Shown in pieces: positions 1,082 to 19,459 of a stretch of 32,540 nt of DNA (within the stretch, counting starts at the first letter, position 1; each line of letters opens with the position of its first letter). The notes below the pieces were generated by a model. It did no database searches. It was not told the DNA's origin and saw only the letters and a program-made list of their open reading frames with translations. Source of the DNA: an uncultured virus (IMG/VR IMGVR_UViG_3300007538_000001) (Duplodnaviria > Heunggongvirae > Uroviricota > Caudoviricetes > Crassvirales); IMG/VR virus record IMGVR_UViG_3300007538_000001; one strand, given 5' to 3'. The position numbers were made by a program, and so were the translations under genes.

Positions 1082-1679
1082 CTCTTGCGCTATTTATCAG
1101 ACCATCTATCAGGTCATCAATTTCTTCATCAGATGCTTTAGATAGATCATCAATGTTAATACCTTTCATATTCTTTCCAAACTCTTCAATGTTAAGGCCT
1201 ATTCTTTTACCTTTTACATTGCTACCTTTGAAGTTAGAAGTTTTAGGTATTTCTCCATTACGCTGTCCTTCTCTAACTTTATCCATTAAATCGTCAGCGT
1301 AATCTTTTAGATGAGGTTTATGGAATTGTATTGCTTGCGCAACAGCAATCATAGCTTTAGCAAATGTGTCATCGCGCATACCTACTTGCATAAGTATCTC
1401 ACCAATTGATTCATCACTAGCTCTTACGAAAGCACAATCCATGCTTTCTATACCTGATTCTCCTTCTTGAGCATTTGGATCAGCTGTTGCCACAAATGTG
1501 AGAATATGCTGATTCTTATTCAAGTTGTTCTCAAGCACGTATGCCATAAGTTCAAGAGCATGTCTCAACTTACCTTGTACAGTTCCTGAAATTGGTTTGC
1601 TTATTTGTTCACCCTCTGGTGATACGGGTTTTTGCGAACCTTTACCGTTGTTGTTTCCTTTTTTAAATAGTCCAAACAT
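1062..1679 (-). CDS. Hypothetical protein, acidic C-terminus
   Basis: 205-aa ORF with A-rich leader; overlaps the helicase start. Confidence 0.8.
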   Translation of the reverse strand: MFGLFKKGNNNGKGSQKPVSPEGEQISKPISGTVQGKLRHALELMAYVLENNLNKNQHILTFVATADPNAQEGESGIESMDCAFVRASDESIGEILMQVGMRDDTFAKAMIAVAQAIQFHKPHLKDYADDLMDKVREGQRNGEIPKTSNFKGSNVKGKRIGLNIEEFGKNMKGINIDDLSKASDEEIDDLIDGLINSARDEEDED

Positions 1680-1823
1680 ATTCTTATTGTTTTTGTTTTA
1701 GATTAATGGGAGAGACTCTAATGCCTCTCCCGAATTTAATAATTCTACTCCTTTATCAGGTGTAATTAACTTGCCTTATGGCAATAAGTTAAAATACATC
1801 ATCTTTTGATTTAGTTTTTGTTA

Positions 1824-1926
1824 AGTTTCCCTTGGGTCACAATTGTCCTTGTTAACAGCTAACGCTAGCACCATAGTTTGTGACACATCGAGTGCTACTA
1901 ATAACCGGCCATCCAAGGGAATAACT
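1824..1926 (-). ncRNA. Candidate pseudoknotted small RNA with 9-bp closing stem
   Basis: TTCCCTTGG/CCAAGGGAA closing stem (1827-1835 with 1913-1921); crossing 7-bp helices 1866-72/1891-97 and 1836-42/1878-84; intergenic. Confidence 0.55.
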
Positions 1927-1929
1927 ACT

Positions 1930-2283
1930 TTACTGATGCATGTGAACATGCACCTTATTTCCTCTATTTGTAACTTTTCCGTCTATTTGAAGGATTTTTC
2001 TGGATGCTTTTGCAACTTTATCAGTACCTTCTTCACCGTATTCTTCATGTACTCCAGCCATAATGTCATCAATACCTTCTTTATATCCATCTTTTAATCC
2101 TTCACTACGTTGATTTTTAAGCATTTTGAATGCTACCAACATAAAAGTTATAAAAACTATATTTAAAAAAGAAAGTATAACAACTGCTATTGAAGTGTTA
2201 GGCTCATTATTAAATAATGTTCCTAAAAAATATCCACTTACGGTAAAAAATAATGCTGATGTTACTAATAATTTATACTTCAT
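1930..2283 (-). CDS. Hypothetical membrane protein (2 TM)
   Basis: Two hydrophobic N-terminal stretches; overlaps the neighbouring gene in an operon. Confidence 0.75.
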   Translation of the reverse strand: MKYKLLVTSALFFTVSGYFLGTLFNNEPNTSIAVVILSFLNIVFITFMLVAFKMLKNQRSEGLKDGYKEGIDDIMAGVHEEYGEEGTDKVAKASRKILQIDGKVTNRGNKVHVHMHQ

Positions 2284-2686
2284 TTGCTATGTCTTTTAGG
2301 AATGAAAAATCTAATTCATCGAATGAATCACTATCTGGACTAAACCTGTTTAAGAATTCAGTTAAATGTCTTGCTTCCATTACATCTGAATGCAAGTCTT
2401 TAAACATTTTTCTATCTCCTTTTCTACCTAATGCATGCATTAGTTTGCTAACGCCTTTTAATGCGTCTTTTTTCTTTTCATCAGGGATATTTTCTACTTG
2501 TTCTTTAGTCATTTCAACTTGTTCAAGTATTTTGTTCATAAATTTTTCCCTGACTTCTAAAATCTCACTTAATTTATCGTATCTTTCTTTACATATACGA
2601 AAAACTGTTTCAAATTCTTTTACACTTAAAGATTTTTGAAAATCCTTAAATGCTTGTGTGTCTTCTGTTTCTTCTGTTTTACTCAT
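2273..2686 (-). CDS. Hypothetical helical protein
   Basis: 137-aa ORF, overlapping starts/stops with neighbours. Confidence 0.8.
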   Translation of the reverse strand: MSKTEETEDTQAFKDFQKSLSVKEFETVFRICKERYDKLSEILEVREKFMNKILEQVEMTKEQVENIPDEKKKDALKGVSKLMHALGRKGDRKMFKDLHSDVMEARHLTEFLNRFSPDSDSFDELDFSFLKDIANEV

Positions 2687-2927
2687 TTTCTAAGTTTCTG
2701 TAATCTATTTCATTTTTTAAGTCGAATAATTGGTGTAATCTATCTTCTAGCTCACCACGCTCAATCTTAGCTATTATATTCTTTAGATGATTAACATCTA
2801 ATTCTTTATAAAGCTTTTGAGTACCATTAGATGATGTCCAACTAATAGTATTTCTTATCTGTTCATGGGCTTTCATAAGCCTCGAGTCTATGGTAACATG
2901 AAATGCCTTCTTCTTAAGAATCGTCAT
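2679..2927 (-). CDS. Hypothetical protein
   Basis: 82-aa ORF in a tightly packed operon. Confidence 0.7.
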   Translation of the reverse strand: MTILKKKAFHVTIDSRLMKAHEQIRNTISWTSSNGTQKLYKELDVNHLKNIIAKIERGELEDRLHQLFDLKNEIDYRNLENE

Positions 2928-3150
2928 CTTCTTGTTCTTTTTCTGCTATATACTCTTCATATTCCTCTCTTGTCATCTTTTTCACGTTTATCTTAACTAA
3001 AGCTAAGATAGACACAATCAAGACTCCAATAGCTGCTACCCACCACTTGAGTAACATACATACCAATATTAATGTTATCCTAGGCCATTTATAAGCCAAA
3101 AGAATTATTAATAATGGTAATAACTTGTACGCGTATTCCATTGCTGTCAT
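2914..3150 (-). CDS. Small membrane protein
   Basis: Hydrophobic 78-aa ORF with a charged tail. Confidence 0.7.
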   Translation of the reverse strand: MTAMEYAYKLLPLLIILLAYKWPRITLILVCMLLKWWVAAIGVLIVSILALVKINVKKMTREEYEEYIAEKEQEDDDS

Positions 3151-3293
3151 TAGTTTTCTTCTTTTATTGATTTAACTTCTTCTATTACTATGTATGTGTC
3201 ATTCTGAGTGACTTCTACATTATCATCTACCTCTATATTGATTCCTTTTTGATGGAGCCAATTAAGAGTATGGTTCATATAAATTGTTTTCAT
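3150..3293 (-). CDS. Small hypothetical protein (47 aa)
   Basis: Manual: MKTIYMNHTLNWLHQKGINIEVDD...; TAATG coupling to the next ORF. Confidence 0.6.
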   Translation of the reverse strand: MKTIYMNHTLNWLHQKGINIEVDDNVEVTQNDTYIVIEEVKSIKEEN

Positions 3294-3307
3294 GTTATTT
3301 TTTTTAC

Positions 3308-3392
3308 TGACTACCTATCCTGCGAGGATTCGAACTCGCGTCTCCAAGTAATGACACCTAGCGTTATGGCCTCTCTACTAAGGGTTATAGTC
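3308..3392 (-). tRNA. Degenerate tRNA-like element (Asp-GTC or Met-CAT like)
   Basis: T-arm GCGAG-TTCGAATC-CTCGC, variable region AGAC, anticodon stem CTAGG/CTTGG with an 8-nt loop TGTCATTA, interrupted acceptor, weak D-arm. Confidence 0.5.
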
Positions 3393-3396
3393 AAGA

Positions 3397-3531
3397 TTAA
3401 TCTCCCCATCTAAATCCAGGAGGAGTTGGCTCATTATTATCATCATCTGGACCATACTTTTCATATAAATATACTATTATACCACCTATAACTACAAGTC
3501 CAAAGTAAATAAGCATTCCTTTTATATTCAT
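3397..3531 (-). CDS. Small membrane peptide (44 aa)
   Basis: Manual: MNIKGMLIYFGLVVIGGIIVYIYMKS... Confidence 0.55.
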   Translation of the reverse strand: MNIKGMLIYFGLVVIGGIIVYLYEKYGPDDDNNEPTPPGFRWGD

Positions 3532-3544
3532 AATTTTGTTTTTT

Positions 3545-3577
3545 AAAAAAAGCCAGCTACTGTACTTCACTGGCTTT
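3545..3577 (-). terminator. Intrinsic terminator-like hairpin
   Basis: AAAGCCAG...CTGGCTTT followed by a T-run on the minus strand. Confidence 0.5.
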
Positions 3578-3651
3578 ATTAACGTGCAAATTTCGTCCGG
3601 GCCTCATCAGGAGGTGATTTTTATAGTCTTCCCGGCTGACTTAATTTCTTT

Positions 3652-3694
3652 AAAAAAATGAGACGGAGCAAGTCTAAATAAAACTCCGCCTCAT
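3652..3694 (-). terminator. Intrinsic terminator-like hairpin
   Basis: ATGAGGCGGAG...CTCCGTCTCAT then a T-run on the minus strand; lies just 3' of the mini-tRNA. Confidence 0.6.
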
Positions 3695-3732
3695 CAACCA
3701 ACCAACTAAATCAACAGAAAACATCTGCTTAG

Positions 3733-3783
3733 GTCACCATGTTGGAATCGAACCAACCTAACCACATCTAGAATCATGGTGAC
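3733..3783 (-). ncRNA. 51-nt truncated tRNA-like RNA (His-like, one arm missing)
   Basis: GTCACCAT GATT CTAG-ATGTGG-TTAG GTTGG-TTCGATT-CCAAC ATGGTGAC: perfect 8-bp acceptor and canonical T-arm, with only one small internal hairpin. Confidence 0.7.
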
Positions 3784-3816
3784 TCAATGTATCATTCTTT
3801 GATGATACATTGTAAC

Positions 3817-4347
3817 TTAATCTAATTCCTCATTGTATGCAACTTTTTTGACATTAACTAACTTTTGTTGAAGTGAGAAATAATCTTTATTTAATTCTCT
3901 CTTTACATTATCAAGAGTTTTTTCTATTTCTCTCATCTTCCTTGATACTCTAAGTACCTTCAACTCAGCGAATTGTTGGTCATCCATATCTGTCACTAAC
4001 TTTTCATATATATCATATATGTCAGGTCTATAAGCTTCTATTTCTTCCCAAACATTTGTCATTGCGTGTGTAACTGTTGCATGATCTCTATTAACAAGAT
4101 AAGCAATTGATGAGTATGAGTATTTAGTTAGTTCAATTGCAAGTCTAAAATAAACTGCTCTTAAATAAACTAATTCTCTTTGTCTATTTGTCAAAGTAAT
4201 ATCTACTCCTGCTTCATCAGAAACAGAATTAATAAGATATTGTAACTTCTTCTTCTTTTTAAATAACAATACAGAATGATCTCTATCAACATTATATTTC
4301 TGTTGAAAGTGTCTCTGTATCACTACATCACTTTTGCTTTTTCCCAT
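3817..4347 (-). CDS. Protein with DnaA domain IV-like HTH and C-terminal coiled coil
   Basis: RQRELVYLRAVYFRLAIELTKYSYSSIAYLVNRDHATVTHA matches the DnaA C-terminal signature (R.R..V..R...MYL..ELT..S...IG....RDHTTV.HA); no AAA+ domain. Confidence 0.75.
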   Translation of the reverse strand: MGKSKSDVVIQRHFQQKYNVDRDHSVLLFKKKKKLQYLINSVSDEAGVDITLTNRQRELVYLRAVYFRLAIELTKYSYSSIAYLVNRDHATVTHAMTNVWEEIEAYRPDIYDIYEKLVTDMDDQQFAELKVLRVSRKMREIEKTLDNVKRELNKDYFSLQQKLVNVKKVAYNEELD

Positions 4348-4479
4348 ATTTTTGTTTTTTTAGGCTTCTTTTCTGTCTTAAAGCCTTTGATTATCAATTG
4401 TTTTCTCCCAATCACATCACAAGTATAACTTGATCCAGTGATTACATTGTATTCATGTTTTACCATAGTTTTATTGGTT

Positions 4480-4737
4480 TTAAATTTTTAGTTTTCTTCT
4501 CTCGTAAATATCTACTTTCTTTAATAACTTTATATCTGTTGTTCCGAATTTATGTTTGATTTTTAGTTTCTTTGAATTAACTGTAATTGTTCCATTAACT
4601 AATATCATTTCACATGTTTCTTCTTCATAGTTAATCTTAGTTATAAGAAGTAAATGATCTCTAGATATATAGTTAATAACTGAATCTAATTAATAGTCTA
4701 ATTTAACATGATCTCCTATTTTAAATTTATTATTCAT
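4480..4737 (-). pseudogene. KOW/SH3-like small ORF with an in-frame TAA at codon 16
   Basis: MNNKFKIGDHVKLDY*LDSVINY...YERRKLKI*; TAA at 4690-4692; both ends resemble ORF 7158-7493. Confidence 0.6.
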
Positions 4738-4757
4738 GTTTATGTATATAAAATTAG

Positions 4758-4915
4758 TAGCAACGACAGGAGTCGAACCTGCAATCTCTGAGTTATCAGC
4801 TCAGCGTGATCGGCTTCTCACAATAAACTTCCTTTGTATTTTCATCTGATCAATTACTTCTATACAAACTATAATATTGCTAACATAGCGGCCTTTCCTT
4901 TTTCACCACGTTGCG
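4758..4915 (-). tRNA. tRNA-Ile(GAT)-like gene with ~82-nt insertion in the D-loop
   Basis: Acceptor CGCAACG/CGTTGCT-A, D-stem GTGA/TCAC, anticodon arm CTGAG-CTGATAA-CTCAG, T-arm GCAGG-TTCGACT-CCTGT; total 158 nt. Confidence 0.8.
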
Positions 4916-4924
4916 GTGAAGTTA

Positions 4925-5300
4925 ATTCCTACGCCAACATTATCCCACTTAACAATAGTGTAACTGCCAAGGGCAGGAGACGCAGTAGTTTATAATATTT
5001 ACGTCACTATGAACCAAACTAAGTACCTATCTGCGGTAAGGTTAGCGCGAACCCACTGTAACATTAATGCTCTATAAGTGGCTATCTCAAGGGCCCTAGG
5101 TTTCCTTCCAACCAGGGCTTTCTTTGTTCAAGAACTGAAAAGCTGTGTGATAGTGACGTAAATAATTATACTTGCTTGTTCTAATGTACCCATCTCATTA
5201 GATTCAAATCTTTATTGACGTGTGTCATGGATCTTCATTTACAAGCTTAGAACTTCCTAGCTTTTAAGTGCAAGCACAACAAGCTGTTCTCATAAGACGC
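4925..5300 (-). ncRNA. Tandem candidate structured RNAs (three closed units) upstream of the aberrant tRNA
   Basis: ~390 nt with no ORF; closing stems at 5174-80/5278-84, a perfect 15-bp stem at 4996-5010/5150-5164, and TGCGTC/GGCGTA at about 4930-4984. Confidence 0.6.
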
Positions 5301-5309
5301 ATAGTGAAG

Positions 5310-5540
5310 CTAGGTTAGAAATTTAAATTTTCTTGGTGATCCTGATCCTGGATCAAATTTCCTTGATAATCTCTCAACCATTTTTATACCTAATCTCTTT
5401 GGATTGTATCCATCAGAGAAATCAATATGATAATGGTCTTTTGTTATTTTTGTGACTTGCCCACGTTTATATTCACTTTTGCCGTGGGAGCCAGGCCAGA
5501 AATACTTTGTTTCTATATAGTCTCCTACGGCATATTTCAT
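5310..5540 (-). CDS. Small KOW/SH3-like protein
   Basis: KYAVGDYIE...GQVTKI...YHIDF pattern. Confidence 0.7.
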   Translation of the reverse strand: MKYAVGDYIETKYFWPGSHGKSEYKRGQVTKITKDHYHIDFSDGYNPKRLGIKMVERLSRKFDPGSGSPRKFKFLT

Positions 5541-5669
5541 TTATCTTGTGATTAATTTCACTAACGCATTTTTATTTGTTGTTGATAATATCTCTGCTGC
5601 TCTTCTAAATAGAATGCCTGCTCTTATGTCATTCATTATCGGAACAGTAGAAATAGGTGTTCTCCATGA

Positions 5670-5954
5670 TTAAATATTTAATTGTCTTCTTTTGTTATTG
5701 TTTCTAATTCTTTTTTTAGCATTTTCAACTGCTATGTGTTCTTGGTTTCTAAGATCCTTTGTATTTGTTACTAAGATCTTACCTTTTGTTGTTCTAACTA
5801 CTACCTTGTCACCACGGATAGATAATAGTTCTACTCTCATTCTTTTAAACTTAGGAGATGCCCACGATAGGTGATACCATTCTCCTCTTTCTGGATACGT
5901 AGGTATCCTGTCTTCAGGCTGTATCCTTAACTGTGCTTTCTCTAGGGCATTCAT
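5670..5954 (-). CDS. Small SH3-like hypothetical protein
   Basis: 94 aa, beta-rich core, C-terminus KRRQLNI. Confidence 0.7.
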   Translation of the reverse strand: MNALEKAQLRIQPEDRIPTYPERGEWYHLSWASPKFKRMRVELLSIRGDKVVVRTTKGKILVTNTKDLRNQEHIAVENAKKRIRNNNKRRQLNI

Positions 5955-6244
5955 TACACATCTATTCTTATTCCTACTCTTTTAAGCTTAGCTTTTTGAA
6001 TTTTAATGTGCTCTATTTTAGATTCAGCATTCTTTCTGCTTACCTCTATTTTTTGTTTTTGAATTTCTTGATGATTAGCAAGCACTACTCCTTCAACAAC
6101 AGCTTTAATTGCTTTACCAGATAACCTTGATATTACAGTTGCTTTTTTCTCATCTAATTTGCCGGCTCTTAAGTCTAATACATCCTGACCTAAGCCGGTA
6201 GCAAGTCTATTCATAACGGTCATTTGTTTTTTAATTGGTATCAT
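5954..6244 (-). CDS. Hypothetical helical protein coupled to the upstream NUMOD4-like gene
   Basis: ATGA overlap with 6241-6753. Confidence 0.7.
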   Translation of the reverse strand: MIPIKKQMTVMNRLATGLGQDVLDLRAGKLDEKKATVISRLSGKAIKAVVEGVVLANHQEIQKQKIEVSRKNAESKIEHIKIQKAKLKRVGIRIDV

Positions 6245-6753
6245 TTTATTTTTTGTTTTTTAAGTTCTCTATGTAATTTTAAATGGTTTTTTTTAGCATC
6301 TATTATCTCAGGAGTTAAATCTTGAGTAGTACATCTTAATACTGTTGAAATATAACCATCTTTAAGATCCTTCCTGTATTTATTTCTACTTAATTTAATT
6401 TTTTCAGGATTGTTACGTTTAAATTTAGCTGAATTTAATCTTCTTTTTTCTTTAGTGCATTTGCTACAAAAAAAGTATTGAATATTATTATCATTATCTT
6501 TAGTTTTTTTATTGCATTTTTTACAATGGAAAAAACCAAAGTATTTTTTAACTAGAGCTTTTGTACATTTAGATCCTTTTTCTTTACCATAATTAATTTG
6601 AACAACAATTCTATCTTTATCTTTTCTGCTTTTAAGAGGGTATTTTCTTTTTACTTTGTCTCCATTGTTATTAAAATAATAATTAGAAAATACCACACCA
6701 TCTTCTCTAATAGAATACTTTTTATTAGTTCCTTTTATAAATTTTGTTTTCAT
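6241..6753 (-). CDS. NUMOD4-like/Zn-ribbon basic DNA-binding protein (homing-endonuclease related)
   Basis: N-terminal IKGTNKKYSIREDGVVFS (NUMOD4-like), CxxC...CxxC, very Lys-rich; no intact HNH motif seen. Confidence 0.55.
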   Translation of the reverse strand: MKTKFIKGTNKKYSIREDGVVFSNYYFNNNGDKVKRKYPLKSRKDKDRIVVQINYGKEKGSKCTKALVKKYFGFFHCKKCNKKTKDNDNNIQYFFCSKCTKEKRRLNSAKFKRNNPEKIKLSRNKYRKDLKDGYISTVLRCTTQDLTPEIIDAKKNHLKLHRELKKQKIK

Positions 6754-6844
6754 TTGTTCTAGTTTTTAAATAAGCTCAAAACAAAAATATGTACGTTAAT
6801 CAATTACTTTATCCATATTGTATATTATTTTGAGCTTTTGGTTT

Positions 6845-6965
6845 AACTTCAAGGAGCCGTAACGCCCGGTTCTATATGGTTCACGATGATTTGTGACAAC
6901 AGAGGTGAATGGATCGGTCATATATCCTCACATCTTCATGCTACTCGAACTCCTTGCTAGAAGTT
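6845..6965 (-). ncRNA. Candidate multibranch small RNA
   Basis: Closing stem AACTT-(CTAG)-CAAGGAG/CTCCTTG-AAGTT; inner GTGA-GGAT/ATCC-TCAC and TCAC/GTGA helices; GC-richer than the flanks. Confidence 0.5.
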
Positions 6966-7141
6966 TATATCTCGACCTGCATCATTTCAGGACGTGACAC
7001 TAAAGTGTTGCTAACTACAAGTGAATTTCTAAATGCTATCTTAGCTAGCACTTGTTTACCTGCATCATATGTGTTTGCTGCAAATACTTTAAATTGTTCA
7101 CCTGCCGGTGTTTCTACTAAATATTGTTCTAATCTTGCCAT
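6965..7141 (-). CDS. Small hypothetical protein (58 aa)
   Basis: Manual: MARLEQYLVETPAGEQFKVFAANTYDAGKQVLAKI... Confidence 0.6.
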   Translation of the reverse strand: MARLEQYLVETPAGEQFKVFAANTYDAGKQVLAKIAFRNSLVVSNTLVSRPEMMQVEI

Positions 7142-7157
7142 TGGTTTAAGGTTTTTG

Positions 7158-7493
7158 TTATAAATCTAATTTTCTTCTTTCATGTATTGGTGCTAAATGT
7201 AATGATTCCTCATGTATTAGAGTTCTCAATTCTTCACCATTATATTCTACCGTATACATTATTCCAAAGCCTTTCCAAGTAGCTCCTTTGATAGTGTATA
7301 TAAAATTCATTTCCTCTTGTGTGCTTAATGAGAGGTCTTTGAATTCTGATTTTTTGATGCAGACCTTGTCACCCGGCCTGAATTTAGCGCTACTCTGAAC
7401 CATATCCGCGATGGACTCCATGGAAGCTTGCATATGTAAATGAGCAATCTTATGACCTTCTTGAGATTGTTCTTCAAAGTACTCATCATTCAT
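7158..7493 (-). CDS. KOW/SH3-like hypothetical protein
   Basis: KFRPGDKVCI...YTVEY...IHEESL; ends ERRKLDL. Confidence 0.75.
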   Translation of the reverse strand: MNDEYFEEQSQEGHKIAHLHMQASMESIADMVQSSAKFRPGDKVCIKKSEFKDLSLSTQEEMNFIYTIKGATWKGFGIMYTVEYNGEELRTLIHEESLHLAPIHERRKLDL

Positions 7494-7767
7494 CTAATTC
7501 GTCTTTATACTTTGGTATGTGTATAATATCATCATACCATTCAAAATTATCTAGGTCAGCACCCTCCATAGATATGAGTAATAAATCATACTCCATTCCT
7601 GTTTCATAATAGTTCTTCAAGAACCACATGACTCTTTGTTCGTAAGTTGCTAACTCACGTTTTTTTCTTTTCTTTGATATTATTTTGTTTTCTTTTCTTG
7701 ATATTCTCCATTCTGCTACCATAAGAATCAACACAAATAATACTAAGGTAATAAAAATTCCTTTCAT
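7486..7767 (-). CDS. Membrane-anchored hypothetical protein
   Basis: N-terminal hydrophobic helix. Confidence 0.7.
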   Translation of the reverse strand: MKGIFITLVLFVLILMVAEWRISRKENKIISKKRKKRELATYEQRVMWFLKNYYETGMEYDLLLISMEGADLDNFEWYDDIIHIPKYKDELDE

Positions 7768-7791
7768 AATTCGTATTTGTTTTTAATTAAA

Positions 7792-7938
7792 AAACTTAGG
7801 GTTGAGTGATGGCCCTAAAAGATTGTCATTGTAAATGCTTTCACACTTATACACACACGTACATTACTGCACGTAGACAACATATTCACGAGTTACGGTG
7901 CTCGACACCACTACATTAAGAGTTACAATTTTAAGTTT
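7792..7938 (-). ncRNA. Candidate structured RNA with GNRA tetraloops
   Basis: AAACTTA/TAAGTTT and ATTGTAA/TTACAAT stems; TACGTGCA-GTAA-TGTACGTG and GTGT-GAAA-GCAT hairpins; G-U pairs and GNRA loops point to the minus strand. Confidence 0.6.
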
Positions 7939-8018
7939 CATTATGATTTAGCTATTAGTAAGCAACAGTTAAATACTGTTGGTTGTTTTTATTAATTAGT
8001 TTAGCACCCTCTTTCATA

Positions 8019-8159
8019 TTATTCATAATCTGATTCTATTAAAGTTCCTAAAGGAAATATACTAAATGTTCCATATCCTCTTGAATGTGCAATTTTTGTT
8101 GCTTGTGTTTCTGAAGTATATACTCCAATGACATTACCATTATATACTAATTCTACCAT
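8019..8159 (-). CDS. Small hypothetical protein (46 aa)
   Basis: Manual: MVELVYNGNVIGVYTSETQATKIAHSRGY... Confidence 0.55.
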   Translation of the reverse strand: MVELVYNGNVIGVYTSETQATKIAHSRGYGTFSIFPLGTLIESDYE

Positions 8160-8180
8160 AATTGTTTATTATTAAATTAA

Positions 8181-8386
8181 AAACTCTTTGCCCAAATTTC
8201 AGTGGGATGTTGTCTCGGTACTCCTTCACCCAAGTATTGTGGAGTTTTAATGTTTACAACATATTTACAATAAACACAACCACCTGATAATGGTTTATAA
8301 GTCGTCACATTATAAGTTATTTCAGTTATAACAGGGCGTGCTGTCGCAATTCATTTACTTATCGTTTATCTTTAATCAAAGAGTTT
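8181..8386 (-). ncRNA. Candidate ~205-nt multi-hairpin RNA
   Basis: Perfect 10-bp closing stem AAACTCTTTG/CAAAGAGTTT enclosing about six hairpins. Confidence 0.55.
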
Positions 8387-8506
8387 AATTATAATGTTTA
8401 CATTTTATTTCTTTCCAACTTATTCTTTATATATTTTACTAAGAAATATTCCAATGATAATCATTATTATTATTATTATCATGAAAGCATAAAAGTATTC
8501 CATATT

Positions 8507-8677
8507 TTATATAATTTCAGTTACTATGATTTCAACATCATTGATTTTTTCCTTTCTTCTAATTGTATGGTTTGCTTTTTCACAACCAACAAGTATTATA
8601 AATTTACCTTGGTAATAAAATCCTTTAGGAAAAAATTCTTTTCCATCAATTATTGCTTTGAATTTATATTTATTCAT
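8507..8677 (-). CDS. Small hypothetical protein (56 aa)
   Basis: Manual: MNKYKFKAIIDGKEFFPKGFYYQGK... Confidence 0.6.
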   Translation of the reverse strand: MNKYKFKAIIDGKEFFPKGFYYQGKFIILVGCEKANHTIRRKEKINDVEIIVTEII

Positions 8678-8692
8678 AATATTACATTTTAT

Positions 8693-8854
8693 TTAAATTC
8701 TGTTGTTGTCATTTAGTTCATCATTAGTTTTTTCTTTTCTTTTATTTGTAGAGTATTTTCTATTGTCTCTACAATAAGGACATCCACCATTACACCTACA
8801 AGTCTTATCAAATGCTTTAGATTTAGTGTATGGCTTTTTATATGTTCTACTCAT
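8693..8854 (-). CDS. Small basic Cys-rich protein (53 aa)
   Basis: Manual: MSRTYKKPYTKSKAFDKTCRCNGGCPYCRDNRKY... Confidence 0.65.
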   Translation of the reverse strand: MSRTYKKPYTKSKAFDKTCRCNGGCPYCRDNRKYSTNKRKEKTNDELNDNNRI

Positions 8855-8881
8855 GCTGGTGTTTTTTCATTTATCTATTAT

Positions 8882-9058
8882 TTAATGTGACCAATCTTGT
8901 TTATAATTACAATGATTACATATCCAACCATCTTTAGTTGCTACTAATAATCTTCTTTCTTTGTGATTATTTGGGCAAGTATATCCATGAAACCTATCAT
9001 CAGCTTGAAGTTTATTTAATTCATCAACTTGTTCTTTTGTCCAAGGTGCTTTGTTCAT
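8882..9058 (-). CDS. Small Zn-binding protein (58 aa)
   Basis: Manual: MNKAPWTKEQVDELNKLQ...HGYTCPNNH...GWICNHCNYKQDW. Confidence 0.7.
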   Translation of the reverse strand: MNKAPWTKEQVDELNKLQADDRFHGYTCPNNHKERRLLVATKDGWICNHCNYKQDWSH

Positions 9059-9129
9059 TTTAGCTATAATTTAATAAGGTTAGTTAATGTTCGTATTTGA
9101 ATTAGGTGGTGAAAAGAGGGGTTTATGAG

Positions 9130-9399
9130 TTATCCCACGCAACTCAACACTCTTCTCTTAAACTTTTTATTGCTTCTAAACACTCTAACACCAACACACT
9201 CTGAAAACATTTTACTCTGCTCGTGAGTCTTATAACCAAGGCTTTTGTAATAGTCCATGTCTAGTCTTACTTGGCAAGATGGATTATATCCTCCGAAGTT
9301 AGAATGTGTCTTATAAAATACACAAGAATCACAGCTAACTCTACCTAAGGGATTGTCAACAATCTTGTAATCTTCTCCTCTATATGATATATCTTTCAT
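9130..9399 (-). CDS. Small Cys-containing hypothetical protein
   Basis: SCDSCVF...C...C pattern. Confidence 0.7.
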   Translation of the reverse strand: MKDISYRGEDYKIVDNPLGRVSCDSCVFYKTHSNFGGYNPSCQVRLDMDYYKSLGYKTHEQSKMFSECVGVRVFRSNKKFKRRVLSCVG

Positions 9400-9553
9400 T
9401 TAGTTCGTATTTAAATTTTGCGGGAAAGTTCGTATTGCAACTCCGCCGTGCATAAAAAGAGAGGATGTAAAGTTTAGGTTATATTAATCAATGTTTTTAC
9501 ATTGATTAAATTAAATACTGCAACTTGTTGCAAACCTTTTTTCACGCAATAAT

Positions 9554-9582
9554 AAAACCACTCTCAAATTAATGAGAGTGGT
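9554..9582 (-). terminator. Intrinsic terminator
   Basis: ACCACTCTCA-TTAATT-TGAGAGTGGT then TTT, downstream of 9604-10071. Confidence 0.7.
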
Positions 9583-9603
9583 CAATGCTTTTAACCCTTA
9601 CTA

Positions 9604-10071
9604 TTATTCAGGGGTTGCAGAGGATGCCTCTTGGGCAACAGGTGTTGCCACGCCATCTCTATCGCCTGCTAACAAAGTATCTTTAGCCTCAAGGTCAAAG
9701 ACATAGTTAGTGTCACGATAAACAGGTGCACCTAAATGAGTGATTACCTCTCCGTCTGCACCTTTTCTTTTAGGCTCTTGACCCTCATAGAATGGTGTTA
9801 AACTTTCAGTAACAACAACTTTACCCTCAATTGGATAAGGTTTGTCCTCTGCAAGGATTGTTTCCATTTCCTTTGCAGTTTTCTCATCTAACGTGATGAA
9901 AGCACTACGATTGGCAAATGACATAAATCCATTATTGATAACAGGTGCACGTTGGTCAACTCGGATTTTACCGAAAGTTTCGCCTTTACTGTTATCAAAA
10001 TAAGTAACAATTGCACCTGTTACAGGGTGAGCCTTTACAATTGGCTGATTTGAAAGAACATTCTTGCTCAT
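9604..10071 (-). CDS. Beta-rich protein, possibly OB-fold/nucleic-acid binding
   Basis: 155 aa with its own promoter motif and terminator; fold is a guess. Confidence 0.75.
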   Translation of the reverse strand: MSKNVLSNQPIVKAHPVTGAIVTYFDNSKGETFGKIRVDQRAPVINNGFMSFANRSAFITLDEKTAKEMETILAEDKPYPIEGKVVVTESLTPFYEGQEPKRKGADGEVITHLGAPVYRDTNYVFDLEAKDTLLAGDRDGVATPVAQEASSATPE

Positions 10072-10441
10072 GATTTCAAATGATTTTATAAGAGTTTTAA
10101 TAAAGGCACTCCATGAAGCCTAATAGTTAATACTAACTACCAATATATAAAAAGAGTTATCTGTAAAGTTTGGGTTTTTTAAGCATGAGTATTTCATCAT
10201 GCTTATTTATTAAGACGCAATTGCAACTCCTGTTTTCAATTGACTGATACTTAAAGCTTCCTGTAATGAACTAGCCAATATGGCATTTCCATTGATGTAA
10301 TAAAGATTTTTCACGAGTTTACGAGATTTAGTTGTGATAGTTATTATTAACTACCAATGTATAATAAGAGTATATGTGAAGTTTAGGTTTTATTAAAAAT
10401 AGCTAAAGGGAGTGCTGTTGTCACACTCCCAATATGTCTAC

Positions 10442-10687
10442 TTAGTTTACATAACTCCTCTTTTTGTTTACCTTAAACTCATAAGTGTTACACATATATA
10501 TTCCAATCTTGCATACAAAGTATACAGCTAATAAGAATGTTTGTGCTTTAATGTTCCATAACAATGACTCATTACTCCAAGGGCGTATTGGTGTATCATT
10601 GAACATGGTTGTGAATGTAATAATACTCATCATCATAGTTATGAACGTGAGTGATAGCATTGCTGTTACTTGAAAGAATGTTTTCAT
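10442..10687 (-). CDS. Small 2-TM membrane protein
   Basis: Two hydrophobic helices. Confidence 0.65.
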   Translation of the reverse strand: MKTFFQVTAMLSLTFITMMMSIITFTTMFNDTPIRPWSNESLLWNIKAQTFLLAVYFVCKIGIYMCNTYEFKVNKKRSYVN

Positions 10688-10740
10688 AATATAGTTGTTT
10701 TAATTATTAATATACCCAATTGATTTAGTTGAAATAAAAA

Positions 10741-10853
10741 CACCTGCACTACCATAGGAGTTAGACATCATTTACGTAGAACCACAAAGGGCTGATGACT
10801 GTAATTTGGGTTAATTTCGCACAGGCTCTACCACATGTTCTTGAAATTAGGTG
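10741..10853 (-). ncRNA. Candidate structured RNA/leader directly after the outermost early motif
   Basis: CACCT/AGGTG closure followed by a T-run; inner GTAGAGCC/GGTTCTAC helix. Confidence 0.4.
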
Positions 10854-11001
10854 AGCTGTCACAAAGTGATACCCCTATACCCAAAATATAAAAAGAGTGG
10901 GGCTAAAGTTTGGGTTTATCTAGCGTACGACAATCTTTTTTCAAAAAAAAAAAAAAAATTAAAAATAATAAAAACAAAGGGGGTGTATTTTAATAGGGGG
11001 G

Positions 11002-11032
11002 TTGACTTTTACATAAAAATGTTGTATATTAG
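11002..11032 (+). promoter_or_regulatory. Promoter TTGACT-N17-TATATTAG (second copy at 11591-11623, N19)
   Basis: Both copies end 4 nt before an ATG (11037, 11628). Confidence 0.65.
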
Positions 11033-11036
11033 CAGT

Positions 11037-11594
11037 ATGAAGAGAATAATTAGTCCTGTAACAGGAAAGAAAATAAGAGATATAACTGGACAAAGGTTTG
11101 GAATATTGACAGCAATAAAACCTACAATTAAGGTAGGTAGGAATCATAAATGGTTGTGTAAATGTGATTGCGGAAATAAGAAAGAAATATCAGTTAAGCA
11201 ATTAACAAGAACAGATAGAGGTGATAAACCGCCAACAAGGTCATGTGGATGCATTGGTACTAAGCCACTGGAGCACTATGGAGGGTATAAAGGAGTACAT
11301 AAGTCTTATTTTACATCTTTAAAGCATGGAGCTAAAGCCAGGAATATTGAATTTAAAGTAACGATAGAAGAAATTGGAGATTTATTAGAAGCGCAAGAAA
11401 ATAAATGCGCATTATCTGGAGAAGAGATAGAGTTTACATCATATGGCATTAAAACTGCATCACTTGATAGAATAGATTCTAATAAAGGATATACAATTGA
11501 TAATATTCAATGGCTTCATAAAGACGTAAATAGAATGAAACTAAATCTTTGTCAAGAAAGATTTATTGAATTATGTAAAAAGATATCCACTTGA
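11037..11594 (+). CDS. HNH homing endonuclease-like protein
   Basis: DITGQRFGILT...WLCKCDCG...SCGC N-terminal domain; CALSG...SLDRIDSNKGYTIDNIQWLHKDVNRMK nuclease motif. Start reassigned from 10851 to ATG 11037. Confidence 0.85.
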   Translation: MKRIISPVTGKKIRDITGQRFGILTAIKPTIKVGRNHKWLCKCDCGNKKEISVKQLTRTDRGDKPPTRSCGCIGTKPLEHYGGYKGVHKSYFTSLKHGAKARNIEFKVTIEEIGDLLEAQENKCALSGEEIEFTSYGIKTASLDRIDSNKGYTIDNIQWLHKDVNRMKLNLCQERFIELCKKIST

Positions 11595-15164: not shown

Positions 15165-15412
15165 CAGCAGAACAAATTATAATGTTAGGTTTTATGCCTG
15201 ACAGAAGAAATCAAAAAGTAAAACAAAGTGGTTACTCGGTGACAGGAGAAGATAGAGAAGGGAACATCTGTGAATTAAGAATAGTAATGAACTACTATAC
15301 CGGAAGTGTCCAGATTATATATACTGAAGCAACAGAAAGAAAATTAATATACGAAGGTGAAGTCTCATCAATTAACGAACTAGAAGAAAGAATACAAGAT
15401 GGAGAGTATTAA
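15158..15412 (+). CDS. Hypothetical protein
   Basis: 84 aa, overlaps the groEL start. Confidence 0.7.
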   Translation: MVTAEQIIMLGFMPDRRNQKVKQSGYSVTGEDREGNICELRIVMNYYTGSVQIIYTEATERKLIYEGEVSSINELEERIQDGEY

Positions 15413-16961
15413 ATACGGGAGAGAAGCAAGAGAGAGTATACAGAGAGGTGTGGATACTCTCTCTAATGCAGTAAAGATTACATTAGGGCCTAAGGGTCAG
15501 AATGTTATTATAGATAGGGGGCCAGATATGCTACCTATCATAACAAAGGATGGAGTAACTGTCGCAAAAAACGTGACAGTTGAAGATAGGTATGAGGCAA
15601 TGGGTGTACAGTTAATGAAAGATGTAGCTGAACAGGCTGAACAAGGATCAGGTGATGGTACTACTACCGCTACTGTGATAGCTCAGTGTATACTTAATTA
15701 TGGATTAAAACTTGTTGCAGGTGGATATGATGCAAATGAATTAAAGCAGGGGGTAGATTTCGGTGTAAAGCAGGCAGTTGAATATATAAATTCGATTGCT
15801 ATTCCTGTTGATACTGATTCAGAAATGATTAAACAAGTTGCCACAGTATCTGCAAATAACAATATTGAGATTGGAGAGTTAGTGGCAAAAGCTTTCGGGA
15901 AAGTAGGCAGAGAAGGAGGAGTATCCGTAGAAGCTAGTCAAGGACAAACTACTTATATTGATGTAGTTGATGGGATGCAATTCGACAGAGGTATGGTCAG
16001 TCCTTATTTCTCTACTAATCCGGACACAATGGAAGTGACTTATAAGGACCCATATATTATGTTGGTGGATGGTAAGTTAACTACTGTTGAGGATGTAATG
16101 CCTACATTAGAACAAACAACGAAGGTAGGAAGACCGTTACTAATAGTGGCGGAAGACATTGAAGGACAAGCACTTGCAACGTTAGTGATAAACAAAACAC
16201 GAGGAGGAGCGCAAGTTGTAGCCGTTAAGACTCCAGGATTCGGAAGCCAAAGAGCTGAAATACTACAAGATATGGCATACCAAACCGGAGGCATAGTATG
16301 TAAATCAGAATTTATAAACCAACTGGATGGTACCTACTTAGGTCAAGCAGATTCAGTTACAGTAACTCAAGGATCAACAGTTATAGTTGGTGCTAAAGGA
16401 GATGAGAAAGAAATCAAAGATAGAGTCTCCGAACTACAAGGTAAAATAAAATTAGAAAAATCAGAGTTTAATAAAACTCAACTAACAAACAGAATTGCAA
16501 AACTATCTGGTGGTATTGCTGTAATTTATGTTGGAGGAAACTCAGAGGTTGAGATGAAAGAAAAAATGGATAGAGTTATTGATGCTAAGGAAGCCGTAAT
16601 ATCAGCACTAGAAGAAGGTGTTGTACCAGGCGGAGGAATTGCATTGCTTAATGCTATTGACTTTATTCAGGATGTTAAGCATGAGACAGAGCAAAAAGGA
16701 ATTAACCTCCTTAAAGAGGCGTTAAAATCACCAATATTAACAATATGTGAAAATGCTGGAATCAATGGAGATGTTGTTATTTCAAGTATCAATAGACACA
16801 AGACTAGTGGAAGACTTGGGTATGATGCTAAAAATGCTAAATACGAAGACATGATAGTTGTTGGTATTATTGATCCAAAGAAGGTAACAAGAGTTGCATT
16901 AGAAAATGCTGCTTCAGTTGCTGGAACAATCCTTACAACAGGATGTGCTATTAAATTATAA
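15399..16961 (+). CDS. groL: Phage-encoded group I chaperonin GroEL (Cpn60)
   Basis: TLGPKGQNV, ITKDGVTVAK, GDGTTTATV, GMQFDRG, KTPGFG, EEGVVPGGG, GIIDPKKVTRVALENAASVA; no GGM tail. Confidence 0.97.
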   Translation: MESIKYGREARESIQRGVDTLSNAVKITLGPKGQNVIIDRGPDMLPIITKDGVTVAKNVTVEDRYEAMGVQLMKDVAEQAEQGSGDGTTTATVIAQCILNYGLKLVAGGYDANELKQGVDFGVKQAVEYINSIAIPVDTDSEMIKQVATVSANNNIEIGELVAKAFGKVGREGGVSVEASQGQTTYIDVVDGMQFDRGMVSPYFSTNPDTMEVTYKDPYIMLVDGKLTTVEDVMPTLEQTTKVGRPLLIVAEDIEGQALATLVINKTRGGAQVVAVKTPGFGSQRAEILQDMAYQTGGIVCKSEFINQLDGTYLGQADSVTVTQGSTVIVGAKGDEKEIKDRVSELQGKIKLEKSEFNKTQLTNRIAKLSGGIAVIYVGGNSEVEMKEKMDRVIDAKEAVISALEEGVVPGGGIALLNAIDFIQDVKHETEQKGINLLKEALKSPILTICENAGINGDVVISSINRHKTSGRLGYDAKNAKYEDMIVVGIIDPKKVTRVALENAASVAGTILTTGCAIKL

Positions 16962-19170: not shown

Positions 19171-19241
19171 CGCGTGAAGGTGTAAAGGTTGCATGGGTGG
19201 TTCATATCCACTACGGGAGGGTTCGAATCCCTGACACGCTA
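19171..19241 (+). tRNA. tRNA-Met(CAT), initiator-like 1:72 mismatch, slightly degenerate
   Basis: GGTGG-TTCATAT-CCACT anticodon arm, AGGG-TTCGAAT-CCCT T-arm, GCGTG/CACGC acceptor; promoter-like TATATTTAC just upstream. Confidence 0.75.
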
Positions 19242-19370: not shown

Positions 19371-19443
19371 GCCCTTATAGCTCAGCTGATAGAGCGTCTT
19401 GTTTGTACCAAGGATGTCGTAGGTTTGAATCCTGCTAAGGGCT
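19371..19443 (+). tRNA. tRNA-Thr(TGT)
   Basis: GCCCTTA/TAAGGGC, GCTC/GAGC, TCTTG-TTTGTAC-CAAGG, GTAGG-TTTGAAT-CCTGC. Confidence 0.85.
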
Positions 19444-19459
19444 CAATAAAGAGAGGAAA

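Follow-up and report, generated by a model that had tools for sequence, protein, structure and literature searches.

The DNA analysed here, a 32,540-nucleotide (nt) stretch that we call the window, is part of a 52.5-kb record of an uncultured virus (IMG/VR IMGVR_UViG_3300007538_000001; 54% complete). Our comparisons favour, with moderate confidence, the view that autonomous non-coding modules are scattered through its minus-strand early arm and that most of them would be structured RNAs made from the gene strand. An earlier inspection of the sequence (the original prediction) had placed in this arm nine elements with pairing ends, E1 to E9, and three transfer RNA (tRNA)-like elements, T1 to T3. 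The modules form islands of homology that persist when neighbouring genes are swapped or lost, are far better conserved than the silent sites of these genes, and keep their helices paired through compensatory changes, G-U pairs and paired insertions or deletions. For several of the gaps the central part of the prediction was borne out: conserved, autonomous non-coding modules are found there, and gene-strand helices appear to be maintained by compensatory or G-U changes in E1, the T1 block, E6, E8 and a further element at 1680-1800 that had not been listed.

Relatives of the phage were retrieved with a helicase query and by alignment of a DnaA_C-like protein of 176 amino acids (aa). Four lineages were compared: L003/L005, a complete 98-kb genome ~92-96% identical to the window; L009, a Tara contig; L008, a short contig; and L011/L006/L010, ~60-73% identical. 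L007 is the same phage as the window, and contigs from four other metagenomes were also placed on the region; a search for RNA runs that contain the stretch gave none. The elements with pairing ends had been listed at 1824-1926 (E1), ~4930-4984 (E2), 4991-5170 (E3), 5174-5284 (E4), 6773-6837 (E5), 6845-6965 (E6), 7792-7938 (E7), 8181-8386 (E8), and 10741-10853 (E9); the tRNA-like elements lie at 4766-4821 (T1), 3732-3785 (T2) and 3319-3383 (T3). The modules that carry the argument are as follows, with base pairs abbreviated as bp and, where given, identity to L009.

1680..1800, minus strand: unlisted element upstream of a 205-aa gene, with hairpins at ~1798-1761 and 1731-1708 and an invariant single-stranded stretch
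1827..1921, minus strand: E1, with a 9-bp closing stem, the hairpin TAGCAC/GTGCTA and a pseudoknot helix GTCACAA/TTGTGAC
4754..4925, minus strand: T1 block, with a hairpin at 4920-4902, a long helix of 4889-4875 with 4825-4813 and an apical hairpin at 4868-4833; 92.6%
4804-4788 and 4782-4766, minus strand: the tRNA-Ile-derived hairpins of the T1 block, anticodon-arm-like and T arm, respectively
4930..4988, minus strand: E2, a hairpin module that forms one unit with 5171-5250 in relatives; 98.3%
5171..5250, minus strand: 3' half of E4, with the conserved hairpin GCTTGT..ACAAGC; 97.5%
6846..6961, minus strand: E6, a closed element of several helices, three of them inside a closing stem of 9 bp; 89.7%
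7788..7926, minus strand: core of E7, ending in the intrinsic terminator TTAGGG..CCCTAA followed by T6; 96.6%
8176..8390, minus strand: E8; its closing stem has 10 bp, its 5' domain comprises a hairpin and the helix GATAAAC/GTTTATT, and there are also a 3' part that varies and a T run

The region has a mosaic structure, and every non-coding element that survives in L009 forms an island of homology with breakpoints on its borders. On comparative grounds the autonomous islands are E1, E2 together with the 3' half of E4, E6, E7, E8, the T1 block and the 1680-1800 element, with an identity of 88-100%, against 67-80% at the third codon positions of neighbouring genes; in the six neighbouring genes the identity is 0.67-0.80 at third and 0.88-1.00 at second positions. 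Both L009 and one metagenome contig keep E5 and E6 without the 170-aa and 96-aa genes downstream, and in L009 other DNA lies between E7 and both of its neighbouring genes. Also the T1 block is kept better than its flanks in three other metagenomes (e.g. 97% versus 90.5 and 95%, and 96.7% versus 89.5%). The preference for the gene strand, claimed in the original prediction, was confirmed, as the consensus folding energy was lower on this strand in all eight blocks.

In the alignment of E8 (A6), 41 pairs are drawn, 99.2% of the cells are paired, seven pairs are changed on both sides, and the score was reached by none of 500 shuffles. A model (R2) built from the 5' domain of E8 in three lineages matched Cellulophaga phage phi14:2 at 1281-1395 (36.3 bits, E 1.6e-4) and Cellulophaga phages phi4:1 and phi17:2 (42.8 bits), which belong to the genus Lightbulbvirus and are not crAss-like. 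The element is present as a single copy in each Cellulophaga phage genome, where it is the top R2 match genome-wide. This link was undetected by blastn from the window; the 5' domains of phi14:2 and phi4:1 are joined by blastn at 89.8% identity. The 10-bp closing stem reads AAACUCUUUG/CAAAGAGUUU in the window; in phi14:2, with two compensatory changes, it reads AAGCUCUUUA/UAAAGAGCUU. A G-U intermediate between the two states is seen in L005. In phi4:1 the closing stem is kept with one U-G pair, and in the helix GAUAAAC/GUUUAUU two A-to-G changes give G-U pairs, which form on the gene strand only. A five-sequence alignment (A12), whose fitting to the model favours the structure, has 94.8% of 116 cells paired and seven pairs with double changes, and again none of 500 shuffles reached its score. 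In phi14:2 and phi4:1 the element lies downstream of an OmpA-domain gene; in phi14:2 it occupies the gap g002-g003, where small open reading frames (ORFs) formerly annotated across the element have since been withdrawn. Judged by these comparisons, E8 is a new structured RNA family, present in Cellulophaga phages of two different families.

T1 (4766-4821) scores 31.4 bits with the Rfam tRNA model RF00005 (gathering threshold 29), over model positions 10-63 only. Its interpretation as a cloverleaf-shaped tRNA mimic had to be abandoned. In the four sequences available, 93.4% of the cells of the cloverleaf are paired; the 7-bp acceptor stem is not supported, with 71% of cells paired and two of seven positions unpaired in all four sequences, and the D stem is broken in L005. 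The 5' strand of the D stem pairs instead with upstream sequence, in a 12-bp helix (4889-4875/4825-4813) that is 100% paired and includes two compensatory pairs. The apical hairpin shows three pair types at one position, and the stems of the anticodon arm and the T arm are invariant in all four sequences. For the rewired fold as a whole (A8), 37 pairs with 100% of 136 cells paired and three double changes were found, a score reached by 2 of 500 shuffles. The poorly kept cloverleaf and the recruitment of a D-stem strand to a covarying long-range helix argue that T1 is not a tRNA. On the other hand, it has in common with a genuine tRNA-Ile(GAU) of phage L048 a 33-nt pattern that spans the anticodon loop to the T arm, and both the loop CTGATAA and the T arm match that gene; a 28-nt stretch had no exact match among bacterial genomes. 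The block is 92.6-97% identical in relatives, exceeding its flanks. T1 is, in our interpretation of these alignments, a former tRNA-Ile(GAU) gene that has become the tRNA-derived part of an RNA of ~170 nt.

The 1680-1800 element (A4, three lineages) has 26 pairs, 100% of 77 cells paired and three double changes (16 of 500 shuffles reached the score), with a structure conservation index (SCI) of 0.94 at 80% identity; it is 84% identical to L011, as against 53% at third codon positions of the next gene. E1 with its pseudoknot (A3, three lineages) has 22 pairs, 98.4% of 62 cells paired and three double changes (10 of 500 shuffles), and in L011 a one-base deletion in one arm of the closing stem is matched by one in the other. 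A likeness of E1 to phi14:2 at 3130-3400, and one of E7, were confirmed neither by MAFFT nor by the models R1 and R3. In E6 (A5) 98.9% of 93 cells are paired over 31 pairs, with one double and three one-sided changes, and the SCI is 0.98 at 82% identity. A motif common to E1 and E6, TGTYGTCACAAA, is not enriched. The mean column identity of E7 over three lineages is 99%, which is too high for covariation; three of its four substitutions fall in predicted pairs, with pairing kept. E2 is as close to L005 as to L009, and two one-sided changes, with no double ones, keep its pairing. As the 5' half of E4 (5251-5309) has no match in L009, the closing stem drawn for E4 is not conserved. The boundaries of E4 and E7 differ from those originally proposed, and relatives do not retain the closing stems proposed for E4, E7 and E9.

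Pairing ends had been the starting point for the whole set. The positions given were right and the ends can pair; this signal is, however, close to what chance would produce. A census of perfect inverted repeats spaced 30-220 nt in 1600-11000, compared with 100 dinucleotide shuffles, gave 45 repeats with arms of at least 8 bp (46.1 expected), 18 with at least 9 bp (12.9 expected; reached by 14 shuffles) and 8 with at least 10 bp (3.6 expected; reached by one shuffle), five of these eight being intragenic. Minimum free energy z-scores, calculated for the gene strand with 200 dinucleotide shuffles, were -1.7 for E1, -1.5 for E2, -3.9 for E3, -1.3 for E4, -3.5 for E5, -0.3 for E6, -0.5 for E7, -1.2 for E8 and +1.3 for E9, and about 0 for T1 to T3. 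With counts and z-scores so near to chance, pairing ends alone are a near-chance criterion. A scan of 9.4 kb against Rfam 15 gave eight matches at E<=10. T1 exceeded the tRNA threshold, and none of the matches fell on E1, E2 or E4-E9 beyond two chance-level rows, snR76 (5185-5243, E 4) and Ocean-V (10188-10259, E 6). The statement that the elements belong to no known family holds for Rfam 15, with the exceptions of T1 (tRNA) and a hammerhead-like match described below. With the region as query, blastn against GenBank phages returned nothing useful; nhmmer profiles of ten aligned blocks had no match in phi14:2, and DNA patterns from the 1680-1800 element and the post-T2 block matched only already-known IMG/VR contigs.

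The remaining features of the arm, again with identity to L009 where given, are listed below.

3300..3397, minus strand: T3, an aberrant element of tRNA origin in which the T-loop is GTTCGAATCC and a contiguous acceptor stem is absent; 94.8%
3567-3642 within 3545..3642, minus strand: RAGATH-1 hammerhead-like motif, a sub-threshold match to Rfam RF03152
~3575-3545, minus strand: hairpin after the hammerhead-like motif, with loop TGAAGTACAGTAG, then a T run
3652..3734, minus strand: post-T2 block, a conserved stretch after the tRNA slot with the intrinsic terminator GAGGCGGAG..CTCCGTCTC followed by T7; 100% in the 50 nt after T2
3732..3785, minus strand: T2, a minihelix resembling a tRNA and made up of an acceptor-like stem of 9 bp, a small hairpin and a T arm, without an anticodon arm
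4989..5170, minus strand: E3, a lineage-specific 180-nt insertion with terminal inverted repeats, 15 nt perfect (~20 nt imperfect)
6772..6837, minus strand: E5, in which a 10-bp inverted repeat surrounds the promoter-like box TATTTTTG; 87.7%
10741..10853, minus strand: E9, a leader region downstream of promoter-like motif 1
9452-9480, 10147-10176, 10361-10389 and 10888-10916, minus strand: promoter-like motif AACCYAAACTTYA-N5-9-CTCTTWTTAT

The hammerhead-like motif scores 35.1 bits (E 0.0064), below the gathering score of 56.3. Its core, CUGAUGAG..CGAAA, and the pseudoknot CCGGG/CCCGG are present, the latter being compensatory relative to the family consensus. Hammerhead cleavage needs a stem III with A15.1:U16.1 and an unpaired H17 beside stem I. 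The window motif has C in place of U at position 16.1, its stem I is only 4 bp long, and it allows no stem III; self-cleavage is doubtful. A pattern scan found 31 viral loci of RAGATH-1 type, 14 of which share the layout of the window motif (core, linker, hairpin, U run), and most of the 15 sequences with this layout, the window included, share a conserved hairpin loop. When 20 loci were rescored, five passed at 56-82 bits and 15 fell below, among them 11 same-layout loci at 45-54 bits. The group with this layout may be a non-cleaving derivative of RAGATH-1. Its 14 loci (L016, L017, L023, L025, L029, L031, L035, L038-L041 and L043-L045, with the motif at ~385-500 of each) lie in diverse, often very large viral contigs; they have the hammerhead core and pseudoknot and no clear stem III, and in most the linker is followed by a terminator hairpin with loop UGAAGNACAGUAG or GUGAAAGUAG. 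No tRNA was called by ARAGORN within 400 nt of the 31 loci, and Rfam placed one near L017. In L020 a twister-P1 match (499-562; 57.5 bits, gathering 67.2) lies ~50 nt from an above-threshold RAGATH-1 hammerhead. Action of the window motif in trans was considered and rejected, as one target match with three mismatches was found in the window against 0.23 expected, and 21 of 100 shuffles did as well. L005 and L009 lack the segment 3682-3397, which comprises the motif and a small membrane-protein gene, and one metagenome contig joins 3541 to 3649, lacking 3542-3648 only. At both junctions relative to L005 this cassette is flanked by a near-repeat, GAAATTAA / GAGATTAA.

The three tRNA-like elements of the original prediction do exist, with the 31.4 bits already quoted for T1, 15.7 bits for T3, and an acceptor-like stem and T arm without a model match for T2; ARAGORN called none of the three. 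T2 folds with -16 kcal/mol (z -1.5), has no Rfam tRNA match at E<=1, and carries stem-breaking changes in L005, where the T arm is lost in the fold. The same slot is occupied in L011 (8592-8667), L006 (3511-3586) and L010 (2440-2515) by a tRNA with an 8-nt anticodon loop, read as 'ctta' by ARAGORN, and in L008 (1125-1195) by a 47-bit tRNA with loop CTCTACG, parsed by hand as CUA. Suppressor tRNAs are known from crAss-like phages, and the tRNAs with stop-codon-type anticodons in this slot may be suppressors as well. T2 appears to be a decaying relic, located in a tRNA slot that changes rapidly. T3 matches the tRNA model at positions 5-66, below threshold (E 0.05), and a real tRNA in L048 by nhmmer (E 0.0027); it is 87.6% identical to L005, which is below its flanks there. 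These matches point weakly to T3 as a tRNA relic. In the post-T2 block the sequence of the terminator stem varies by lineage, with pairing kept.

A tmRNA-like (transfer-messenger RNA-like) RNA of 160 nt lies at the T2 slot in L009 (8574-8732) and L008 (~960-1120), with the acceptor GGGGAGU/CCUCUCC, a G3:U70-type pair recognised by eye, and a T arm. The L009 copy scores 13.7 bits on the Rfam tmRNA model (threshold 47), and ARAGORN gave no tag. With RF00023 the best scores were 6.7 bits in the window and 10.3 bits in G001 against the same threshold, so that this phage group is without a tmRNA by that model. The record of phi14:2 (L049, NC_021806) holds a tmRNA gene at 4031-4500, with the tag GSSVQKLAMVA* from ARAGORN and an Rfam score of 46 bits (gathering 47, E 3.6e-16); the record table has no tmRNA feature there. 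The gene lies in the gap g005-g006, the region which the transcriptome study of this phage (Drobysheva, Sokolova et al., 10.1101/2020.03.07.982082) reports as an abundant, stable early long non-coding RNA.

Three other listed elements do not belong to the structured-RNA set. E3 is, on comparative grounds, a recent lineage-specific insertion: L005, L009 and two bridging metagenome contigs lack it, and a third contig has the segment replaced. It is a single copy in the genome and sits where the hairpins of E4-3' and E2 meet; the junction AAGT|..|CTAC shows no evident target-site duplication, and two scans of viral and bacterial contig collections found no match to its terminal repeats. E5 had been counted among the stable RNAs; it has a TAnnTTTG box placed 28 nt ahead of the ATG at 6753, is kept in L009, where the downstream 170-aa gene is missing, and resembles a promoter cassette. 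Overall, the canonical Bacteroidota -7 box, TAnnTTTG, shows no enrichment (three found, 4.9 expected). For E9 as a closed RNA there is no structural support, only an inner stretch of ~50 nt being 83% identical to L011. E3, E5, E9 and T2 are accordingly placed outside the set, as an insertion, a promoter cassette, an unsupported element and a decaying relic, respectively.

The four copies of the AACCYAAACTTYA-type motif, each upstream of a small gene and located at the start of the minus-strand arm, had no counterpart in 100 shuffles and are probably phage promoters. Another motif, AAATACGAA, was noticed, by eye only, just upstream of three minus-strand start codons (~9410, 9100 and 7775), and its copy beside E7 is kept in L005 and L009. 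Intrinsic terminators of the gene strand (GC hairpin and T run) were located at ~7820-7790 (E7), 3691-3652 (post-T2), 3575-3545 and 9583-9556, of which a simple terminator scan lists only the last. Genes occupy the minus strand from 1 to ~10800 and the plus strand beyond. Where the gene strand switches there is an HNH endonuclease gene (10851-11594, plus strand); as the GTG listed as its start overlaps promoter-like motif 1, the gene probably begins further downstream. Among 26 proteins of the minus-strand arm scanned, PHROGs names two, a helicase and an HNH endonuclease. The window is from an aquatic crAss-like phage; its large terminase is ~45% identical to those of crAss-like phages (153 matches, including records of Bacteroides, Flavobacterium and Cellulophaga phages). 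ARAGORN found one tRNA in the window, tRNA-Thr at 19371-19444, outside the early region, and relaxed settings gave noise only; 130 nt upstream of it, at 19171-19241 (plus strand), there is a tRNA-like match of 25.2 bits, below threshold. A GroEL-like chaperonin gene at 15399-16961 (plus strand) was recognised by eye.

It is possible, albeit on the unlikely side, that the modules act in cis only, as terminators, sites of attenuation or antitermination, signals for processing by RNase III, P or Z or for stability, and promoter cassettes, all punctuating a polycistronic early region, with no trans-acting RNAs or decoys among them. Hairpin-plus-U tails end E7, E8, the hammerhead-like motif and the post-T2 block; the box of E5 is at a short distance from a start codon, a gene follows directly on the 1680-1800 element, and E9 is part of a leader. 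Also the RAGATH-1-type motifs of the 31 other viral loci lie between unrelated genes. However, E5, E6, E7 and the T1 block are conserved despite adjacent genes being replaced, lost or displaced, which argues against gene-specific roles as untranslated regions. The conservation of E7 extends over 139 nt and exceeds the needs of a terminator, and the complex fold of E8, 200-290 nt long, is kept across phage families.

Several observations weigh against the reading of the arm as a series of structured RNA modules. Single-sequence folding is no better than that of dinucleotide shuffles in seven of the nine listed elements, the exceptions being E3 and E5. The pair score of E6 was reached by 164 of 500 shuffles, and the models of E1 and E7 (R1 and R3) match nothing in phi14:2 or phi4:1. 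In L005, T2 and T3 evolve faster than the sequences beside them. The two intergenic regions highlighted in the transcriptome paper do not include the E8-like region of phi14:2. High identity of islands in a mosaic genome may reflect recent exchange or import rather than selection, and a 155-aa gene is likewise 96% identical to L009. RNAalifold gives 0.8-1.5 chance 'compensatory' pairs per 120-nt coding window (124 windows), so raw counts mean little. Pair counts on three to five lineages make weak covariation tests, and the structures were derived from the same few sequences, which inflates the figures.

A control was provided by regressing SCI on identity in the 124 coding windows of the same alignments and comparing the elements with the fit. 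The residuals of the 1680-1800 element and of E6 were each matched by one of 124 controls, those of E5+E6 and of E8 by none (E8 being extrapolated, as its identity is outside the control range), that of T3 by eight (z 1.6) and that of E1 by 15 (z 1.2). For the T1 block, E2, E4-3' and E7 the SCI is uninformative owing to too little variation. These results bear on an alternative that we regard as improbable, namely that the gaps hold debris of a mosaic genome (decaying tRNA genes, an insertion like a miniature inverted-repeat transposable element (MITE), and recently exchanged islands of homology) in which structure is incidental. Such an account would suit the stem-breaking changes in T2, the divergence of T3, the lineage-specific E3, the breakpoints bordering every island, the near-chance repeat counts and z-scores and the chance compensatory pairs in genes. 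It does not suit the finding that the same islands are best kept across several independent lineages and metagenomes, that SCI exceeds the coding controls for the 1680-1800 element, E6, E5+E6 and E8, and that the E8 model reaches phages beyond blastn, with compensatory changes in the closing stem and strand-specific G-U pairs from A-to-G changes.

That the elements encode small proteins is scarcely credible: ORFs of 42, 41, 25 and 43 aa are present in E1, E6, E7 and E8 (1821-1949, 6796-6921, ~7865-7940 and 8177-8308), but the ATG is lost in L005 for E1, absent from L005 and L009 for E6 and missing in relatives for E7, and in E8 the block for CxxC is the 3' strand of a covarying helix, the sequence between blocks being wholly different among lineages.

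If the early arm is indeed interspersed with structured RNA modules, these would be transcribed within or at the ends of early transcripts and, by analogy with phi14:2, might persist as stable RNAs or protected 3' ends. The original prediction goes further, with putative excision of the RNAs at their closing stems and possible roles as decoys, anti-defence effectors or translation modulators. In T1 the 5' part has been rewired into the long-range helix, with the anticodon-arm-like and T-arm hairpins left intact, and the tRNA-derived modules would most plausibly engage host factors that bind tRNA, such as processing or modification enzymes or anticodon nucleases. An RNA-based host-takeover arm, with half a dozen unrelated conserved RNAs including an enlarged, rebuilt tRNA-Ile that retains just the anticodon-arm and T-arm faces as decoy or adaptor for a host factor that binds tRNA, and an E8 passed from phage to phage, is an unlikely picture, put forward here tentatively. 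Were it true, the movement of E8 between unrelated flavobacterial phages would imply a function portable across phage families. To our knowledge, the non-coding RNAs of crAss-like phages are almost unexplored, with a single published transcriptome, and the window supplies bounded candidates with comparative support. The presence of the E8 family in phi14:2 and in phi4:1/phi17:2, grown on Cellulophaga baltica, makes its expression and function directly testable. The T1 block clearly exemplifies the reuse of a tRNA gene in another fold, which bears on the evolution of phage tRNA-like RNAs and on the interpretation of tRNA-finder and Rfam matches in phages.

Among known systems, the tRNA region of phage T4 yields stable RNAs, species 1 and 2. 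T1-T3 resemble these and tRNA genes in being tRNA-derived and located among phage early genes, and differ from tRNA genes in that none has a working cloverleaf. RNase III processing hairpins separate the early genes of T7, and T4-type phages carry promoter-stem-loop (PeSL) cassettes. Similarly, structured intergenic units punctuate the early operon of the window at mosaic junctions, E5 being an inverted repeat with a promoter-like box, whereas the window modules are mutually unrelated in sequence, larger (100-290 nt) and multi-helix or pseudoknotted. E3 is similar to MITEs as a short non-coding insertion with terminal inverted repeats in one lineage; unlike them, it has no evident target-site duplication and is a single copy, with no other in the scanned collections. 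The motif at 3567-3642 has in common with RAGATH-1 (RF03152) the 5' hairpin, the pseudoknot in place of stem II, the CUGAUGAG..CGAAA core and an intergenic location in a phage; it differs in its score below gathering, the missing stem III, C for U16.1, and the terminator hairpin with a conserved loop after the motif. As for phi14:2, its transcriptome report describes two early intergenic regions that are transcribed above most genes and stay abundant, and the function of these abundant, stable RNAs is there given as not known (Drobysheva, Sokolova et al., bioRxiv 10.1101/2020.03.07.982082). The other modules of the window have no sequence or model match in that phage, and its g005-g006 gap holds a tmRNA gene, which the window's phage group is without. 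What the two share is a crAss-like phage with an aquatic Bacteroidota host, long non-coding gaps among small early genes, and a member of the E8 family in each.

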